42,909 nt of DNA from positions 1 through 42,909 of IMG/VR virus record IMGVR_UViG_3300029822_000863; one strand, written 5' to 3'. The notes beneath the pieces are model-generated. The model did no database searches. It was not told the origin of the DNA and was given only the letters and a program-made list of their open reading frames with translations. Each line of letters starts with the position of its first letter. Within the stretch, counting starts at the first letter, position 1. The position numbers and the translations under genes were made by a program. The DNA is from a virus. Positions 1,555 through 20,925 of this stretch are shown piece after piece.

Positions 1555-4425
1555 TCACTTTTTTGATTTTAATTTTGTTGTACGTTTTTCACGTGGGCCC
1601 CCGCCGAAGAAACTGTCCATGTCCCCTAAAGTATTTCGGATCGTTCGCTTCATTCTATACAAATCGCGATCGGTTTCAAGCACACTCTCTGCCTTCTTTC
1701 TCTTTGCTGTTTTTGTAAACGGCTTGCGTTTTGTTTGTCTGAATGTCGGTATACCACCGTCACGCGCCAACGTTTTGGAGTTCAAACCGCGTGGGATTCC
1801 TTTACGCACGGACGTTTTACTCGATATCGGTTTACTCGATGCGGTTTTACTAGATGTGGTTTTACTCGATATCGGTTTACTCGATGTGCTTTTCCGCGAG
1901 GTGGTTTTACTCGATGCGGTTTTACTGGATGTGCTTTTCCGCGATATGGCTTTACTCGATATCGGTTTACTCGATGCGGTTTTACTAGATGTGGTTTTAC
2001 TCGATATCGGTTTACTCGATGCGGTTTTACTGGATGTGCTTTTCCGCGATATGGCTTTACTCGACATCGGTTTACTCGATGCGGTTTTACTAGATGTGGT
2101 TTTACTCGATATCGGTTTACTCGATGCGGTTTTACTAGATGTGGCTTTACTCGATGTGGTTTTACTAGATGTGCTTTTCCGCGAGGTGGTTTTACTCGAT
2201 GCGGTTTTACTAGATGCGGTTTTACTAGATGTGGTTTTACTCGATATCGGTTTACTCGATGTGCTTTTCCGCGATGTGGTTTTACTCGATATCGGTTTAC
2301 TAGATGCACGCTGCCGCTGCGCGCGTGATCGGACACCAATACTCAATGCCCCCCCACCTCCACCACCAGTCGCGGTGCCACCATCCGTCCCACTCGAGTC
2401 ACCTGGCGTCGCGTTTCCGGAAGCTTGTCGCACAAAAGCAGTTTTTGACCGATTGGAGACGCCCTTCGAAATTGTCTTAGAGATATTCACCGGAGTGGAC
2501 GAGAACATCAGCTCGAGATCTTTAGCCGTTCCACCTTTTAAAGCATTTCCGACATCAGCAACGGCTTTTGCGTCTCCAGCCACGAGTTCAGCTATCTCAG
2601 TTTTCGTTGGCAACTTGCCATTGTCTACTATATATTTTACAATGGGGGATTCTAAAATTTCAGGGTGCCGTTTTGCAGCAATTTGAGCATACTGCACCAC
2701 TTCTTTTGATATTCCCACCCGTTTCGTGACCTCGTACGCCGTGCCGATTTCGATGAGGTCCCTGACATCTTTAACTCTGCCCCCATGCATGAGGTCTATC
2801 TTGCCGTCCTTGAGTGTCGTACCGCCTGCGAACTTCCTGGCAGACTGTTCCTGCAGCTTCATCATTTTCACAGAATCTGCTTTTATGGACTCCATACCCT
2901 TGAATCCAAACGCAATGCCTGATTCAGGTCTGTATCCAACTCCCTCTGCCGCCTCTATCGTGCCTTTAGCTGTTTTTTTATGTGAGAATACTTCAATGCC
3001 CTTTTCCCACTTATCATTCATCCTGAACTCGATTTTTGGTGCTGTTTTTTCCCCGGTTATTCTGTAATTCACCCCCTCTTTAAACCCATTCGCGGTTGCA
3101 TTTTTTCTAAACATCGAGACGAACTTATCTACGGAGTTGACAGATATTTCAATGTCTTTTGGTGTCCGTGAAAAGTATCCATCCATCTGCAGTTTCTGTG
3201 GAACTGAACCATAAACTTGAATGTCCCTACCGACAAGTCTTCCTGTTTTGCTGCCATAATCCTTGATTGTTTGCTTTACAATCGGTTTCATATCAGCCGC
3301 GACGTGCGCGCTTAACACCTCAAGCTCTTTGGGCTTTGTTATTGGAGATTTCTGCTTGTACGCAGTTTCCGCGATCTTTTTACCCGCGGCAAAGTAGTCC
3401 TGCTCGAGCTGGTCAAATTGCTTTAACGTCTTCTCGAAGGCTTTCGTGTCCGCTTTAGTGAATGCCTGCACCTGTTTTCCTTCGAGCATCTTTTTGTCTG
3501 CCGACAGTGTGCCTTTTTGGAACTTTCTAGAAGATTTTGAGTACGAGACGATTGGTTTCTTTCCTATCGAGGCAGTATAACCAAGGTTTATATCCCGCAC
3601 TGCAGCAGCTTCTCCTGGAGTGACCTCTTGAAGCTTCGTGGATCTAACATGAATTGGGTTGATTTTTTTAACGCCCCTGCCTAAACCTTCCATGAACGCG
3701 AGACTGGTTGCGAATCTTATGGGATCGGACGTCACGGATTTTGATATCATACCCGCGCCTATCGGCATTGACGGGAGTATAGTTTTTGGTTTCTGAGCCC
3801 ATCGCTCAACCCCCTTCGATACCCCACCGACCATCGATGGCATGTCGGTAACATCATACACACCTTTCACAACCGAACCAACGACCGGGAGACTATCAGT
3901 CACACGCACCGCCGCGTCTTTTCTCGTCACCCTCCCAAGATAAGCAGACGCGGCTTTTCCGCGATCATCCAGCCACTCGGATGCCTTCGAGTACTCAAAT
4001 TCGCGCTTAGGTTTGTACGAATCAACAACGTCCTGCATTGGACGGCTCAATTCCTCGCCTGTAGCCAGTCGCTTTCCCGCGTCGTATAACAGACTAGCTT
4101 TCTGGACAGCCGTGTATTTTTTCGCGTTCGTTTGTATCTGGGACGGGGCACGTCTGGCGCGTTCCGCTTCCACTGCGCGCACCTGGGTGGACAATCTCTG
4201 ATCTTGCTGCCGGTATGCAGATGAGCCACCCGGTGTTTGTGACCAACTCGCGTTGCGCGCCGCCTGCGCTTTCTGCACTTCCCGCTGTCTCGCATAGTTT
4301 GACCCGGACGAACTGCCTACCACCCCACCGGACGCATTCCGGCTAGCTGTCGTTTTTGCAGCATGCCCGCCGCGTGCCTCCGATAGCGACACGTGCGTTT
4401 TTCCTGAGCTATCGACGTATGCCAT
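1555..4425 (-). CDS. 956-aa basic protein with a putative AbiEii/MenT-like nucleotidyltransferase domain and an S/K/T repeat tail
   Basis: Long ORF with RBS; motifs VYGS-x11-RTPKDIEI, GIEVF and GRVKDVRDL; 33 pentapeptide repeats near the C-terminus. Confidence 0.85.
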   Translation of the reverse strand: MAYVDSSGKTHVSLSEARGGHAAKTTASRNASGGVVGSSSGSNYARQREVQKAQAARNASWSQTPGGSSAYRQQDQRLSTQVRAVEAERARRAPSQIQTNAKKYTAVQKASLLYDAGKRLATGEELSRPMQDVVDSYKPKREFEYSKASEWLDDRGKAASAYLGRVTRKDAAVRVTDSLPVVGSVVKGVYDVTDMPSMVGGVSKGVERWAQKPKTILPSMPIGAGMISKSVTSDPIRFATSLAFMEGLGRGVKKINPIHVRSTKLQEVTPGEAAAVRDINLGYTASIGKKPIVSYSKSSRKFQKGTLSADKKMLEGKQVQAFTKADTKAFEKTLKQFDQLEQDYFAAGKKIAETAYKQKSPITKPKELEVLSAHVAADMKPIVKQTIKDYGSKTGRLVGRDIQVYGSVPQKLQMDGYFSRTPKDIEISVNSVDKFVSMFRKNATANGFKEGVNYRITGEKTAPKIEFRMNDKWEKGIEVFSHKKTAKGTIEAAEGVGYRPESGIAFGFKGMESIKADSVKMMKLQEQSARKFAGGTTLKDGKIDLMHGGRVKDVRDLIEIGTAYEVTKRVGISKEVVQYAQIAAKRHPEILESPIVKYIVDNGKLPTKTEIAELVAGDAKAVADVGNALKGGTAKDLELMFSSTPVNISKTISKGVSNRSKTAFVRQASGNATPGDSSGTDGGTATGGGGGGALSIGVRSRAQRQRASSKPISSKTTSRKSTSSKPISSKTTSSKTASSKTASSKTTSRKSTSSKTTSSKATSSKTASSKPISSKTTSSKTASSKPMSSKAISRKSTSSKTASSKPISSKTTSSKTASSKPISSKAISRKSTSSKTASSKTTSRKSTSSKPISSKTTSSKTASSKPISSKTSVRKGIPRGLNSKTLARDGGIPTFRQTKRKPFTKTAKRKKAESVLETDRDLYRMKRTIRNTLGDMDSFFGGGPREKRTTKLKSKK
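1810..2304 (-). repeat. Coding tandem repeat, 33 x 15 bp (S-[SR]-K-[PTAS]-[ITAMS])
   Basis: Units such as TTTACTCGATATCGG, TTTACTAGATGTGGT and TTTTCCGCGA... counted from the translation, in frame with 1555..4425. Confidence 0.95.
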
Positions 4426-10518: not shown

Positions 10519-10748
10519 CGACGAAGTGAAGAAATTTTCTTTAAAATGTAAAATCACTACAATCATTAGTAAGTTTTATATTTGAAAAGTGCGTATATTA
10601 ACATATACTAAAATGGGGGAATGTACCATAGCAGACAATGAACCAACTGAAAAAGAATGTTCCAAATGTAAAAGAATACTTAAAATCGAACAATTCGCGA
10701 TGAGAAAAGACAGTTGCAAACACCGGAACGAATGCAAGGAATGTAAAT

Positions 10749-10880
10749 GTGAACTACCACCGAGCTAAAGACTCGGCGGCTTCTTGGTTCATTCCTCCCT
10801 CTACTGAGGGCAAGTCCCCAAGCTCCTCCCCGCGTTCCGCAGGTGTTGAATAGGTTTCAAACCCCTATTAGGTTTTGATC
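10749..10880 (-). ncRNA. TnpB omegaRNA scaffold (3' part); guide is the flank starting ATTTACATTCCTTGCATTCG
   Basis: Structured region between the tnpB end and RE; helices covary with the copy at 18900-18995; 5' end unknown. Confidence 0.75.
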
Positions 10881-11969
10881 TATGAGAGAGAATTTTTTAA
10901 TATTGATAGCGGCGTTTATATCTCTGTCGTGCTTTGTTTTACAGGCTGGGCAAGTCCATTCTCTGTCTTTCAAAGTCAAATCTGACTTGTGATATCCACA
11001 ATCTGAACAAAGTTTAGAGGAAGGCTCAAATCTTCCTATCCTTAAGATAGTTTTTCCTGCCCACTCAGCTTTATACTCTAATTTCGTTACAAAGCTACTC
11101 CATGCAGAATCACTTATAGCCTGAGCTAAGTGGTGGTTTTTAATCATTCCTTTAACATTCAGAGTTTCCAACGCTATAGCTTGGTTCTCGCTTATGAGTT
11201 TAGAAGAGAGTTTATGCTGGAAATCGTTTCTCTGATTGCTTATTTTCTCATGGAGTACAGCAAGTCTTTGTTTAGCTTTTTCTCTGTTCTTAGAACCTTT
11301 CTGTTTTCTTGATACTCTTTTCTGAAGGACTTTAAGCCTTTTTAGAGAGCTTTTCAAGTACCTAGGATTCTCTATCTTTTCACCTGTAGAGAGCACAGCA
11401 AAGTCTTTGATTCCTACGTCTACACCTATTGTTGTGACTTCGGTGAAAGGTTGCTTCGCTGGGAGTTCTGCACCATTTTCAACGAGGATACTAATGTAGT
11501 AATCTCCTTTACAAGTCTTTGATATCGTTGCTGTTTTCAACGCACCTTCAAAGTGTCTGTGCAGAACGGCTTTAATCTCTCCAATTTTAGGCAGCTTAAC
11601 AGTGTTGTTTTCAAAGTCAACGCTATAGTGCTGCGGCACTGGAAAAGATTGTATTGGATTTTTCTTAGACTTAAACTTAGGAAATCCTGTCTTCTCTCTG
11701 AAGAACCGAGTGAAGGCAGATTCAACCTGTTTAGTCATTCCCTGAAGAGACTGAGAGTTAACTTCCCTCAACCACTTATTAGAAAGTTTTAAAACTGGAA
11801 TTAACTTGTTTAAGTCAAACCTGGAGATTGATTTACCAGTTTGCTCATATGTTTTAACTTTTTGATCAAGTGCCCAGTTATAGACAAAGCGACAGCTACC
11901 TATATGCTGATTAAGTTTACCAGCTTGGGCTTCTGTCGGATATAGTCTAAACTTGAACGCTTTCATCAT
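10857..11969 (-). CDS. tnpB: TnpB RNA-guided endonuclease, apparently intact
   Basis: MKAFKFRLYP start, RuvC GVDVG / ALETL / DRDINAA, Zn finger CSDCG...CPAC. Confidence 0.95.
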   Translation of the reverse strand: MMKAFKFRLYPTEAQAGKLNQHIGSCRFVYNWALDQKVKTYEQTGKSISRFDLNKLIPVLKLSNKWLREVNSQSLQGMTKQVESAFTRFFREKTGFPKFKSKKNPIQSFPVPQHYSVDFENNTVKLPKIGEIKAVLHRHFEGALKTATISKTCKGDYYISILVENGAELPAKQPFTEVTTIGVDVGIKDFAVLSTGEKIENPRYLKSSLKRLKVLQKRVSRKQKGSKNREKAKQRLAVLHEKISNQRNDFQHKLSSKLISENQAIALETLNVKGMIKNHHLAQAISDSAWSSFVTKLEYKAEWAGKTILRIGRFEPSSKLCSDCGYHKSDLTLKDREWTCPACKTKHDRDINAAINIKKFSLIDQNLIGV

Positions 11970-12014
11970 ACATGGTATTATATGCTTTACCAACATATAT
12001 AGTTTTTGGTAAAT

Positions 12015-12410
12015 ATGGAGTATGAGCACAAGAATCACAGTAAGTTTTTGCTTATGTACCATGTTATTTTTGTTTGCAAGTACAGGAAAAAGATATTAGA
12101 ACCACTTAACGCAGAACTTAAACAGACTATTCACGATATTGAAAAAGAGTCTGACTTTGAAATACTGGAAATGGAAACTGACAAAGATCATATCCACATG
12201 TTAATTAAGAGTGAGCCTAAAGTTTCAGTTGTATCTATAGTTAGAAAACTGAAACAAGAGACTACAAATAGGTTATGGAAAAGTCAAGGCAACTATCTTA
12301 AAAGATATTATTGGGGAGAAAAGACTTTGTGGAGTGATGGGTATTTTGCCTCAACTATAGGAAATGTTAGTAAGGAAATAGCTGAGGCATACATCAGGAA
12401 CCAAGGTTAA
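12015..12410 (+). CDS. tnpA: IS200-type HUH (Y1) transposase
   Basis: YHVIFVCKYR, DHIH (HUH), WSDGYF, AYIRNQ. Confidence 0.95.
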   Translation: MEYEHKNHSKFLLMYHVIFVCKYRKKILEPLNAELKQTIHDIEKESDFEILEMETDKDHIHMLIKSEPKVSVVSIVRKLKQETTNRLWKSQGNYLKRYYWGEKTLWSDGYFASTIGNVSKEIAEAYIRNQG

Positions 12411-13087
12411 GTTGACGCTTACATCCACTAGGCTAAAGACCTAGTGGTTTTACGCTTCTTCCTATAAAGAAAAAATATTGACATTGTTATGCGGCATTGA
12501 CCGCCCTAACATAATGAACGTTGTTTATTTTCTTGAAGAATCTGATTATTTCACGGTTCCGGCCAGCAAGAAATACCACGGCAATTACATGGGAGGACTT
12601 GCAGAGCATTCGCTTAACCTGTATGAACTCTTTCACGAAAGGAATCTGAAATTGTCACATGGCTTACCAGAAGCCTCTGTAATCGTCTGTAGCATTTTAC
12701 ATGACCTCTGCAAAGTCGGTCTTTATGCTGAAATAGAAAACGAAGTCTATACAATCGCTGACCAGCCGGGGAACAGAGCACACGCATTACTTTCAATAGA
12801 AAGGATCAATGCAACTGGCTTTGAGCTCACAGAAAGAGAATTCAGCATAATGAAATTCCACATGGGAGTGTTCGGAGCTTTCCAAACAAGACCAAGAGAA
12901 ATTCAGGAATTCACACCCGAAGAACTAAGAAAAGCAATCGAAAAAGATTTCATGGTTCAGGTCTTTGCTTCATGTGATACCGAAGAATCACATTCCGTTT
13001 AACTTCTTTTTAAAAAAATAAATTTGAGGCGCTGTAATTTCCTCAAATACACGGAAATCAGAAAAAATAGAACATATGAATTTAATA

Positions 13088-17408: not shown

Positions 17409-18050
17409 ATGATGAAGAGAATAATATACGTACTCACAGCACTGATACTAACCGGGATTGCACAGGGGGCACCTACACTGGCTGCAAACCCAACACACCC
17501 AATCCAACACGCGGATTGCAATTTCTCATTCACATCGAGTGAGCCGTTCACAACAGCTCACTTTTTTTTCAATGGAAATGAGACTGAGACCACTGGAAAC
17601 AACTGGCACACATTCCAAATGCCAGCAGAAGGAAAATATTATAATGTTTCGGTATACGTAGAAAGTCCAACGGGAAATTCAAAAATGCTATATATGCGGG
17701 GAAGTGTACCAAGGGCAATTGCAAATACAACAGTGGGAAAATTCAACGAAACAGAGTTCAATAAACTATCTGACAATATGGAAAATGGCGACTGGGAGGG
17801 AATGCTCGGAAACAGCATGGCTCCATTCGAGGAACTCATGGGAAAATCAGTATACGTGATACTGTTTTTGATGCCATTCGGGTTGATGTGGAAACGTCAG
17901 GAATTCATGACAATTCCAGTGGTAATCAGCATGATCATCGGATGCATCATAATCGGATATATTCCAGAGCAGTACAAAGCGTTCATCGTATTGATGATAA
18001 TGTTAAGCTTTGCGGTGAATTTGTACATGTTGGGGAGAGATCGTCAGTGA
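17409..18050 (+). CDS. Secreted/membrane protein with signal peptide and C-terminal 3-TM anchor
   Basis: N-terminal signal, beta-rich middle with sequons, three hydrophobic segments. Confidence 0.75.
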   Translation: MMKRIIYVLTALILTGIAQGAPTLAANPTHPIQHADCNFSFTSSEPFTTAHFFFNGNETETTGNNWHTFQMPAEGKYYNVSVYVESPTGNSKMLYMRGSVPRAIANTTVGKFNETEFNKLSDNMENGDWEGMLGNSMAPFEELMGKSVYVILFLMPFGLMWKRQEFMTIPVVISMIIGCIIIGYIPEQYKAFIVLMIMLSFAVNLYMLGRDRQ

Positions 18051-18205
18051 ACTGCCACACACCAAAGCAAGCGTGGCTTCCGTCCTTCTGACCGTGAAAA
18101 TAAAACAGAATAAAATAAAAAACAAATACCGTTTTGCAGCAATCACCACGGCAACATTTCACGCGCGCCGACTACCGTAAATTTTCATTTCTACCATGAT
18201 GTGAG

Positions 18206-18451: not shown

Positions 18452-18569
18452 ATCACTGTCTCACTCAGTGACAATTTATCATCGCATATACATACTCAAT
18501 ATAGAAAAACCATGCGATTTGTCACGGAACATATGCACAGCAAAATAACCATTTTCAAAAAATCGCCCA

Positions 18570-18653
18570 TGGATCGCGTCGGAGTCGAACCGACTGCCCA
18601 CCAAACCGGACCCAAATTGTGATATGGTGCATTTTCCGTTCTGCCATCGATCC
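18570..18653 (-). tRNA. tRNA-like gene (84 nt, long variable arm, aberrant anticodon arm)
   Basis: Acceptor GGATCGA/GCGATCC-A, D-arm GCA-GAACGGAAAA-TGC, perfect T-arm GTCGG-TTCGACT-CCGAC; anticodon loop only about 6 nt; identity not assignable. Confidence 0.65.
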
Positions 18654-18800
18654 ATGTTGTGTAGGGGATGTTTGTTTTGAGTCGCCTCGCCCTCACGACT
18701 GCACATCTGCATGTATATATTGGATTCCAAAGCATAAATAAGTTTCGATTGAAAAACAGCAGTATGCATGGTCATGAAAAACAACATGGAAAATGACCAA

Positions 18801-19208
18801 TCATTCCTGCAACGCGATATCTCGGATTAGAGACGCGTTGGCGCGCTGAATCCGATCACCATACTGGCACAAATAATCTATCGACTCTCGATGTTTGTCG
18901 TGAACTACCACTGAGCTAAAGACTCAGTGGCTTCCTGTTTCATTCCCCTTTCTACTGAAAGCAAGTCAACAGGCTCTTCCCCGCGTTCCGCATTGGAATT
19001 GTAAAATCAAGTGAACCCTTCTCATTTTTAAAAACGTTTTCTTTCTGACATACTCCACACGCTGAAGCAACCGTGCTTTCTCCCTTCAACGCAGTAAGGG
19101 AATGGCTGAGGCATACATCAGGAACCAAGGTTAAGTTGACGCTTACATCCACTAGGCTAAAGACCTAGTGGTTTTACGCTTCTTCCTATAAACCTCGTCG
19201 AGTTTCAT
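18801..19208 (-). pseudogene. 39-aa ORF interrupted by the mini element
   Basis: GGGGG RBS; MKLDEVY (19208-19188) joins DKHRESIDYLCQYGDRIQRANASLIRDIALQE* (18899-18801) in frame. Confidence 0.6.
18900..19187 (-). mobile_element. Non-autonomous IS605 derivative (288 bp) with LE, omegaRNA-like region and RE
   Basis: About 100 bp nearly identical to the LE and tnpA 3' end of 10749..12463; RE ends TTCAC; TTTAT target (ATAAA at 19188-19192); no transposase or nuclease ORF. Confidence 0.9.
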
Positions 19209-19338
19209 CTTCAACCCCCTATACGCATCGAACCAAACACACCGGAGACAATCACAGAGACGTTTTGAACGCATTCCGATACATTTTCACGTACTGAAAT
19301 TTAAACCGCTCAAATCGCCTCAGAATCGGTCTAACGCG

Positions 19339-20925
19339 TTAAGCGCACATTCTGGGAATCGGATAATTTTTCCCGGGATAACTGACAACGATCAGATTTT
19401 TCATCGTCCTCGTGATTGCCACGTACCAAACATATGCCTCGTTTGCTCTCCCCTCTGGCGTTAGGGTTCCTTGTTTTACAATCGGAGGCACTGCAGCATG
19501 TAGAAACACGTGAGTTGCTTCGAGCCCCTTTGCTCCATGGATAGTGAGAATCTGAATTCTGTTTATCCGGCTCTCGTCTATTGTCACAACGCCGTTCTTT
19601 AACATTCCGTTGATTTTCAGCTTGAGCATTGAATCGGCGTTCGTTAGGCGTTCACCAGGATTTCCGGCCCGAACTGCCTGTATAAACCCAGCAGATAAAT
19701 ACCAGCTGTTTAGAGCGTTCACGTTCTGCATATTATTCTCGAAAAACAATTTCAGATCTTCTTTTTTTCCGACATACTGCAGATCGGTTTTTTTAACATG
19801 ATCGATTAATTTTTTGTATTCTGCCACGGTTGGCGTTCTGCCGTCTTTGATCTTTGCAATTGCGTGATATAATATGATTTCATCGTGAGTCCAGCCACAT
19901 ATCCCACCGAACGGAATACCCATTTCTGCTAGGATCTTCGCAACCGCATGACCTTGGTAATTTGTCCTGACAAGGTGAAATGCAGTCTCGTCGTCTGCAA
20001 AATACTTTGCAAACCTCTTTGAAAGGTAAGCCGAAAGTCCTTTGTAGTCTACGACAAGCATAAGCCCATCTTCTTTCGGCGTCTCGATTTTCGGAGCTCT
20101 GTATTTGTTTCGGTCAGTCACCATCCACGCTGCTTTTTTCCACACATTGGCCGGAAGTCTGTGACTTAGCGGGAGTACAACAAGCTCACCCTCCGTATTC
20201 ATCAGATGATCTGGACTTGCCCCCATAAATGAGTAAAGAGTCTGCAGTGGATCACCTGCATAGTACACGGTTTCCGCATCGTCGCTCCACATTTTTGAAA
20301 GCTCATACATAATCGGAGTCATGTCCTGCGCTTCGTCATACATCTGGACAGTACAGTCTGTCATAATCCCGTTTTCAAGTGTCAGGTTAAGCATATCAGA
20401 CCAGTCTATTTTCCCTACTTCTTGTTTGTAAGCTTCGTAATTGCCATAGAACTCTTTCTTTTGACTGAAGGGTATTACTTCTTTGCTGTATACCTTCATT
20501 GCTCCTTTTGTCGGGCCTACCATATTGTTTTTACAATATGTGTAAAATGTAGTAAGCTGGTCCATTTTATCTTTTTCTACACTGTCCCTGTTATTGAATG
20601 AATACCCATATTTCATTCCAAATTCTTTTAAGTCTTTCTTTGTAATGAGGTAACCGTCTTCCTTTTTCACGTCTACGATCCCATTTCTCATTAAAAGAGA
20701 CAGGCACTCTCCGTGAAATGTCCTTACGTTGTTCAGGCGTTTCTCTGGGATTGCACACACACTTGAAACGAAATTCTTCGCGTCGTGTGCGGCTTCTCTC
20801 CGGAATTGCGTGAAAAGAATGTTCTCAGGTAATACCCCGTCGTTCAACGCCGTCTTAAAGTCTTCTGTCAGTCTCCACGTTTTGCCGGTCCCAGGTGCTC
20901 CGTCGTATTTTATCACGTTTGTCAT
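19339..20925 (-). CDS. UvrD/Rep-like SF1 helicase
   Basis: GAPGTGKT, RTFHG, DEAQD, GDPLQTLYSFMGA, TIHGAKGLE, YVAITR. Confidence 0.92.
   Translation of the reverse strand: MTNVIKYDGAPGTGKTWRLTEDFKTALNDGVLPENILFTQFRREAAHDAKNFVSSVCAIPEKRLNNVRTFHGECLSLLMRNGIVDVKKEDGYLITKKDLKEFGMKYGYSFNNRDSVEKDKMDQLTTFYTYCKNNMVGPTKGAMKVYSKEVIPFSQKKEFYGNYEAYKQEVGKIDWSDMLNLTLENGIMTDCTVQMYDEAQDMTPIMYELSKMWSDDAETVYYAGDPLQTLYSFMGASPDHLMNTEGELVVLPLSHRLPANVWKKAAWMVTDRNKYRAPKIETPKEDGLMLVVDYKGLSAYLSKRFAKYFADDETAFHLVRTNYQGHAVAKILAEMGIPFGGICGWTHDEIILYHAIAKIKDGRTPTVAEYKKLIDHVKKTDLQYVGKKEDLKLFFENNMQNVNALNSWYLSAGFIQAVRAGNPGERLTNADSMLKLKINGMLKNGVVTIDESRINRIQILTIHGAKGLEATHVFLHAAVPPIVKQGTLTPEGRANEAYVWYVAITRTMKNLIVVSYPGKNYPIPRMCA

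Follow-up and report, generated by a model that had tools for sequence, protein, structure and literature searches.

The window analysed here is the whole of IMG/VR record IMGVR_UViG_3300029822_000863, a linear sequence of 42,909 bp with a CheckV completeness of 72%. It carries a full-length transposon with divergent tnpA and tnpB genes, designated IS-A (the resident element), and a much smaller element without genes, which we refer to as the mini element. Their features are listed below, with LE and RE denoting the left and right ends.

10749–12463, minus strand (read 12463 to 10749): IS-A, 1715 bp, with divergent tnpA and tnpB, delimited by repeats and Pfam matches
12016–12410, plus strand: tnpA, 131 aa, Y1 HUH transposase (Pfam Y1_Tnp, E 3e-37)
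10857–11969, minus strand: tnpB, 370 aa (Pfam OrfB_IS605, TNB and HTH domains)
10749–10845, minus strand: omegaRNA core of IS-A including the conserved CACC, wholly downstream of the tnpB stop codon
10733–10748, minus strand: guide-forming flank of IS-A, ATTTACATTCCTTGCA, placed by its position next to the RE end
19188–19192, minus strand: TTTAT transposon-adjacent motif (TAM), read from the sequence directly 5' of the left end of the mini element
18900–19187, minus strand (read 19187 to 18900): mini element, 288 bp, ORF-poor, IS200/IS605-type
19093–19187, minus strand: LE of the mini element, 95 nt, 98% identical to 12369–12463
18993–19092, minus strand: filler, 100 nt, A/T-rich, aligning with nothing
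18900–18992, minus strand: RE of the mini element, equivalent to the omegaRNA core, 85% identical to 10749–10841, with the TTCAC end at 18904–18900
18884–18899, minus strand: putative guide-forming flank of the mini element, 16 nt, GACAAACATCGAGAGT, placed by its position relative to the RE end

IS-A is preceded by TTTAT at 12468–12464 and ends in TTCAC. The divergent orientation of its two genes is also the arrangement of IS605 of H. pylori. The TnpA protein carries the HIH (HUH) and SDGY (Tyr) motifs, while TnpB keeps GVDVG, ALETL and HDRD (the RuvC D/E/D residues) as well as both CxxC motifs of the zinc finger, and aligns end to end with the TnpB of ISDra2 (8h1j/8exa, E 3e-79). Judged by these motifs, the resident TnpB is catalytically intact. 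It is 84–92% identical to the TnpB proteins of Methanosarcina. The insertion splits a 224-aa ORF with a Cys-rich N-terminus (10613–13002), and since exact removal of IS-A, joining 10748 to 12464, restores the frame, the insertion is recent.

The record is probably a Methanosarcina or archaeal virus. A 3.3 Mb Methanosarcinaceae genome (G074) shares 77–80% nucleotide identity with two of the virus genes, and this, together with TnpB relatives of 84–87% identity in M. barkeri and other Methanosarcina, points to Methanosarcinaceae as the host. When G074 was searched with 30 kb of the virus, the only matches were IS ends and the two stretches of 77–80% identity, and no spacer-like match was detected. 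Among named phage records, the matches to tnpA and tnpB were distant. Two related viruses were recognized by their UvrD-like helicases (L045, 86% aa identity; L046, 74%), but their DNA is unalignable beyond the stop codon of that gene, and an empty site is not readable there. Elsewhere in the window, an ORF of 956 aa (1555–4425, minus strand) contains a long array with a 15-nt (5-aa) period at 1726–2385. ARAGORN reports an 86-nt tRNA-Cys (anticodon ACA) at 18569–18654 on the minus strand, within a 102-aa ORF just downstream of the mini element; at the gathering score, there is no Rfam tRNA match at this position.

The mini element lies between the gene for the UvrD-like helicase (21009–19339) and the next minus-strand ORF, in the sense orientation. 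Its LE comprises a subterminal hairpin (19149–19171) and the last ~42 nt of a former tnpA; with the TTTAT included, the 100-nt block 19093–19192 is 98% identical to 12369–12468. The filler holds a TATA-like run, TTTTTAAAAA, ~30–40 nt upstream of stem 1 of the RNA scaffold, which could conceivably act as a promoter. No homolog of the filler was found in the window, IS-A, its sister variant IS-B (see below), G074 or ~200 fetched loci. The RE contains the parts of an omegaRNA scaffold: a stem 1 reduced to 4 of its 6 bp (or of 6 bp if an AA bulge is allowed), stems 2 and 3, stem 4, which coincides with the TnpA-type RE hairpin (18908–18930), and GAA and UUC as the two strands of the pseudoknot. 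There is no direct repeat on the RE side, the insertion being 3' of TTTAT without target duplication. The longest internal ORF (66 aa) has no Pfam match, and tblastn of the mini element against TnpA and TnpB found nothing. By the ISDra2/IS605 mechanism (PMC10097598), the flank GACAAACATCGAGAGT would serve as guide in an omegaRNA transcribed from the mini element; this flank has no other close match in the window.

These observations agree with much of the original prediction, which had described a protein-free IS200/IS605 derivative alongside an intact tnpA/tnpB element on the same virus. The ends are asymmetric with subterminal hairpins and no gene between them, the LE is near-identical (98%) and the RE diverged (85%) relative to the full element, TTTAT precedes and TTCAC ends both elements at the coordinates described, and the full element keeps its catalytic motifs. 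The omegaRNA-type scaffold proposed for the RE is likewise upheld, by a four-stem fold with covariation support.

The RNA scaffold at the right end

A scan for the terminal RE motif returned 41 viral and at least 120 genomic loci. Among the matches listed, the scaffold type of the window occurs in methanogens only, mainly Methanosarcina and relatives, plus a few viral contigs. The alignment of 38 distinct sequences of this type shows that the last ~97 nt form four helices and a pseudoknot. Stem 1 has 6 bp and a GAA (sometimes GGA) loop that is complementary to the UUC at positions -5 to -3, stem 2 encloses stem 3, and stem 4 is the terminal hairpin. Across the 38 relatives, 96.3% of cells are paired (79.5% in shuffles), 14 of the 27 pairs have changed on both sides, and controls with slid partners were 32–50% paired. 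Because the search pattern itself prescribed the 3' strand of the pseudoknot and part of stem 4, no weight attaches to their invariance, and stem 4 doubles as the DNA hairpin required by TnpA. Stems 1–3 have no known role in DNA and therefore argue for an RNA. Rfam 15 gave no family match anywhere in the window, and no curated model there fits this omegaRNA type.

Fourteen positions of the RE differ between the mini element and IS-A. Eleven of them fall in helices (stems 2, 3 and 4), where standard pairing is preserved in every case, by five double changes and one change from G-U to A-U; the remaining three are unpaired. The three helices with compensatory changes noted in the original prediction are thus real, and correspond to stems 2, 3 and 4 of the fold supported across the 38 relatives. 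A covariance model built without the mini element scores it at 103 bits (E 1e-30), compared with 119 bits for the full element, and its single-sequence minimum free energy fold has the same four stems as the family fold (z = -2.98).

On the strand that is sense for tnpB, the scaffold of the mini element fills positions -93 to -1 of the RE, up to the transposon boundary. It retains stems 2–4, both strands of the pseudoknot and all of the conserved single-stranded motifs. Homology stops at -93/-94, where CCAA replaces CACC. The CAC of this motif is invariant in 37/37 other sequences, and the last C is changed in one, in which the partner has changed too. Its loss removes the outer two pairs of stem 1, leaving 4 bp or a bulged helix, and alters what may be a 5' processing site. 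With an AA bulge, a 6-bp stem 1 could be re-formed from a CC located two bases upstream.

A second full-length variant and protein-free relatives

Of the TnpB proteins in the collection that occur on many contigs, the closest to the resident one is P0003 (89% identity). This protein (TnpB-B) is encoded in full-length tnpA and tnpB elements at loci L173–L180, which, with four copies in G074, make up a second full-length variant, designated IS-B. The RE of IS-B and that of the mini element are identical (93/93), and the LE of IS-B is identical to the resident LE (105/105). The LE of the mini element has two changes in 95 nt relative to IS-B, the same two mismatches that it shows against the resident LE. 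IS-A (10749–12463) and IS-B (L173:2034–3748) are both 1715 bp long. Identity is 100% over the first 500 nt, which take in the LE, tnpA, the promoter region between the two genes and the beginning of tnpB; the DNA of tnpA as a whole is identical too. The divergent rest, consisting of tnpB and the RE, is 68–95% identical. Such a pattern implies that the tnpB and guide-RNA module was swapped as a unit between IS-A and IS-B by recent recombination. The four IS-B copies in G074 have different flanks and the same RE, and several IS-B flanks are also present in metagenomes. One G074 match extends 8 nt into the flank, which we regard as chance.

With the RE identical at 93/93 positions and the left 500 nt of IS-B 100% identical to the resident element, the mini element is evidently a young, cut-down copy of IS-B. 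The uneven divergence between the mini and resident elements (2/100 on the left, 14/93 on the right; Fisher p = 0.001) is explained by the mosaic structure of IS-A and IS-B. A chimeric RE drawn from several lineages had also been considered, and was dropped once IS-B was found.

Because the full-length IS-B has exactly the same RE, the compensatory changes did not arise in the mini element; they are, on this comparison, lineage differences between two full-length tnpB and omegaRNA modules, in each of which the RNA has evolved alongside its own nuclease. As evidence of selection on the RNA of the mini element, the covariation pointed out in the prediction does not hold. Nothing indicates that the mini element has been kept by selection, and in sibling viruses it is missing or collapsed (see below). 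Its scaffold is cognate to TnpB-B and not to the resident TnpB.

Protein-free elements of 285–411 bp that run from LE to RE are common in Methanosarcina genomes, often as several near-identical copies with different flanks. They include the following families.

L050, L096, L129, L013, L130, L206, L207: protein-free family of ~300 bp
L043, L048, L164, L196, L203, L205: protein-free family of ~400 bp
L198–L201: protein-free family of ~295 bp

Most of these relatives are flanked by TTTAT, and one by TTTAC. Their fold is kept and covaries (93.2% of cells paired, 74.8% in shuffles), and CACC is retained in nearly all of the 17 protein-free relatives, being shifted by a base in one. Elements consisting of a guide RNA only are therefore a normal part of this transposon family, of which the mini element of the window is an atypical, freshly made example. 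A search for more copies in host genomes had been suggested; the other protein-free families are multicopy, but for the mini element itself, a search by filler found none in G074. Nor was a second copy found by filler in viral contigs, metagenomes or fetched loci.

The protein-free families, in Methanosarcina genomes and viral contigs, each have their own conserved interior upstream of the scaffold, one example being GCTGTCACC...AACAGGGCA behind an A/T-rich, TATA-like stretch. This 5' module is absent from every full-length element read here. Another viral contig, IMGVR_UViG_3300005263_000012 (101.7 kb; L041 and L008), carries a full-length element with a TnpB of 90% identity and a protein-free element with the same scaffold and a truncated LE, so that the pairing of a TnpB with a scaffold without genes recurs. 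On three other viral contigs (L005, L019 and L029), the same terminal RE hairpin is preceded by >700 nt conserved between the copies; no relative of TnpB is detectable in this region, which may be a different cargo.

Sibling viruses and possible use of the guide RNA

Sibling viruses are represented by contigs of public runs, two from landfills (different studies) and one from a fermentation. In both landfill runs, a contig matches the window from 19188 rightwards and breaks exactly at the LE junction, with unlike sequence to the left. Homology on the other side stops near 18780–18863, so the main allele has neither the mini element nor the flank matching the guide; the interior of the mini element is covered at about one tenth of the flank depth. 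The same siblings lack 10520–13035, a 2.5 kb island that includes IS-A, with 10519 joined to 13036 via 13 other letters. In the fermentation run, a contig at virus depth reads from the guide flank through the RE hairpin to 18930 and then directly into the 14-nt tip of the LE. Here, the 243 bp separating the two hairpins are missing, and the ~45 bp left of the mini element, which contain no scaffold, sit between the TAM and the target. At the IS-A site of this sibling, the match of contigs at virus depth ends precisely at the two element boundaries (10748 and 12464), beyond which these contigs continue into 141 and 650 nt of unlike sequence, unjoined to each other; this is not a simple empty site, and something else occupies it. 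The loose ends of the sibling contigs (30 nt each) match nothing in the window or in any locus. The mini element looks dispensable.

A degenerate third RE-like stump lies at 18047–18103 on the minus strand, consisting of GAAGCC, an imperfect hairpin and then GGCAGTTCAC. It scores 20 bits with the omegaRNA model (E 2e-4) and ends on the stop codon of the ORF at 17409–18050. The spot is polymorphic: in each of the three sibling runs, contigs stop matching at 18088 and match again from 18100 or 18193.

We consider the mini element to be, probably, a young, non-autonomous, protein-free derivative of IS-B that TnpA can mobilize and that carries a possibly usable guide RNA. Since IS-B encodes the same TnpA, with identical DNA, both ends are native substrates of the TnpA encoded 6.7 kb away, which is expected to move the mini element. 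By the mechanism of IS608 and IS605, the resident enzyme would excise it and re-insert it at TTTAT sites. Transcription of the mini element, which is sense to the flanking genes and has the TATA-like run, would yield an RNA with the 3' flank GACAAACATCGAGAGT as its guide. This RNA might be loaded by the viral TnpB (89% identical to TnpB-B) or by the TnpB of a host IS-B, which would then cut the joint of TTTAT and flank left by excision, and recombination would restore the element. Cutting of the excision joint would be the ordinary self-retention role of TnpB, a role demonstrated by Meers et al. (bioRxiv 10.1101/2023.03.14.532601).

Use of the RNA by TnpB is plausible, and so is loading by the non-cognate protein, since the single-stranded motifs are identical in both scaffolds and the helices differ by compensated pairs only. 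The clipped stem 1 holds down our estimate, and that the RNA is functional seems possible but somewhat doubtful. In the contigs of one metatranscriptome (X15), the full element is represented by its tnpA and LE (100% identity, next to a different flank), and RE hairpins of 30 nt occur beside other flanks; the interior of the mini element is not covered.

The main competing explanation, which we take seriously without quite adopting it, is that the mini element is an inert remnant, a decaying stump of a second IS copy whose RNA is not made, or is not loaded because stem 1 and its CACC are damaged. Its ends would then survive merely because too little time has elapsed, and an RE without substitutions and an LE with only 2/95 relative to the parent do mean that there has been no time for selection to show. 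The breakpoint falls within the scaffold, although what is left retains stems 2–4, both pseudoknot strands and all conserved single-stranded motifs and still scores 103 bits; stem 1 could be rebuilt from the upstream CC with an AA bulge, and trimmed omegaRNAs are functional for ISDra2 (PMC10097598). Its occurrence as a single copy fits a dead stump, as do the siblings with the ~45-bp collapse or without the element and the third stump at 18047–18103, which indicates a build-up of such remnants in this part of the genome. An orientation sense to both flanking genes speaks against the inert reading.

In a more ambitious reading, the virus carries, beside its own TnpB of a different variant, a host-derived cassette (from IS-B) consisting of a guide RNA only, which is loaded during infection by a viral or host TnpB and cuts genomes of the same virus that lack the cassette or have a bare TTTAT and target. 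We consider this unlikely; if true, the mini element would be a small drive or retention device working across transposon variants and across the boundary between virus and host.

Less probable still, and in our judgement very unlikely, is the proposal that the mini element is a selected second guide, with which one viral TnpB cuts IS-free sibling viruses at two loci in a homing or competition system. The geometry of TAM and guide at both elements, the intact TnpB and the published use of standalone omegaRNAs in trans (PMC10691335) would allow it, but in the three sibling populations no allele was seen with TTTAT directly followed by either guide, which leaves the idea without support. The landfill siblings have other sequence beside the TTTAT at 19188 and lack 10520–13035, the fermentation sibling keeps the 45-bp remnant between TAM and target, the DNA of L045 and L046 does not align beyond the helicase gene, and the covariation cited in favour of the proposal stems from full-length variants. 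The empty alleles that the original prediction proposed to look for were not seen in the sibling contigs, whose targets are either lost or interrupted.

Scans of viral contigs gave 0 matches each for the interior of the mini element, its guide flank and the flank of the full element. A metagenome scan with the 20-nt guide flank (18880–18899) gave five matches, four of which (L167–L169 and L171) fall in one conserved coding stretch of bacterial metagenome contigs, where the 20 nt encode the conserved motif GQTSRVD; from this motif, the gene is presumably purH. The five were rejected as empty sites and are chance matches, since none has TTTAT upstream, and all diverge after the 20 nt.

A chimeric join of IS reads in a viral contig is scarcely credible: IS repeats often break or mis-join metagenome assemblies, and the LE and RE come from lineages other than the resident element, but natural IS-B combines just these two ends, 97% of the words sampled from 18700–19400 are present in the likely source run, contigs in two unrelated landfill runs cover the unique interior at 19013–19014, and a fermentation contig has the same junction of RE and flank at 18900.

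Comparison with known systems

The origin of the mini element offers a clean and well-dated case of how a standalone guide-RNA element arises, at ~1% divergence from a full-length parent found in a genome of the host family. The two full-length variants share an identical LE and tnpA, and differ by ~15% in tnpB and the RNA, with each helix change compensated; the half carrying tnpB and the omegaRNA evolves and is exchanged as one module. They also give reason for caution: when two copies covary, the signal may have come down from full-length ancestors, in which case it holds no information on selection on the small copy.

The closest structural model is the TnpB and omegaRNA of ISDra2 from Deinococcus radiodurans (cryo-EM 8H1J/8EXA), with which the resident TnpB aligns over its whole length (E 3e-79). 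In ISDra2, stem 1 is formed around a pseudoknot strand, followed by stems 2–4, and positions -5 to -3 pair with an upstream GNA (PMC10097598). The RNA described here follows the same plan, and in both systems the functional RNA core and the protein-coding part barely overlap. It differs in having a core of ~97 nt (116 nt in ISDra2) that lies entirely downstream of the tnpB stop codon, a pseudoknot strand placed in the 3-nt loop of stem 1, and TTTAT rather than TTGAT as the TAM.

Standalone omegaRNAs that are mobilized without an effector and work in trans are described in a summary (PMC10691335) of the 2021 OMEGA paper of Altae-Tran et al. As far as that summary sets them out, the mini element resembles these loci in combining transposon ends and a scaffold without a nuclease or transposase gene, in having an effector-bearing element in the same genome, and in that it would supply an extra guide. 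Unlike them, its scaffold comes from the sister variant IS-B, is clipped at the 5' side, and is present as a single copy on a probable archaeal virus.

According to Meers et al. 2023 (bioRxiv 10.1101/2023.03.14.532601), PATEs 'often encode omegaRNAs' that require TnpB in trans. The mini element is like a PATE in its protein-free span from LE to RE of a few hundred bp, its position 3' of the TAM and a TnpA encoded elsewhere. Typical PATEs, including the Methanosarcina families of 285–411 bp, are multicopy with a full scaffold and CACC, whereas the mini element seems to have arisen by a single recent deletion and has a foreign filler. Elements of its kind have been described before, and it is a clear example of them rather than a new system or mechanism; it is mildly notable for its probable archaeal-virus setting, for a parent identified in a chromosome of the host family, and for the mosaic relationship of IS-A and IS-B.
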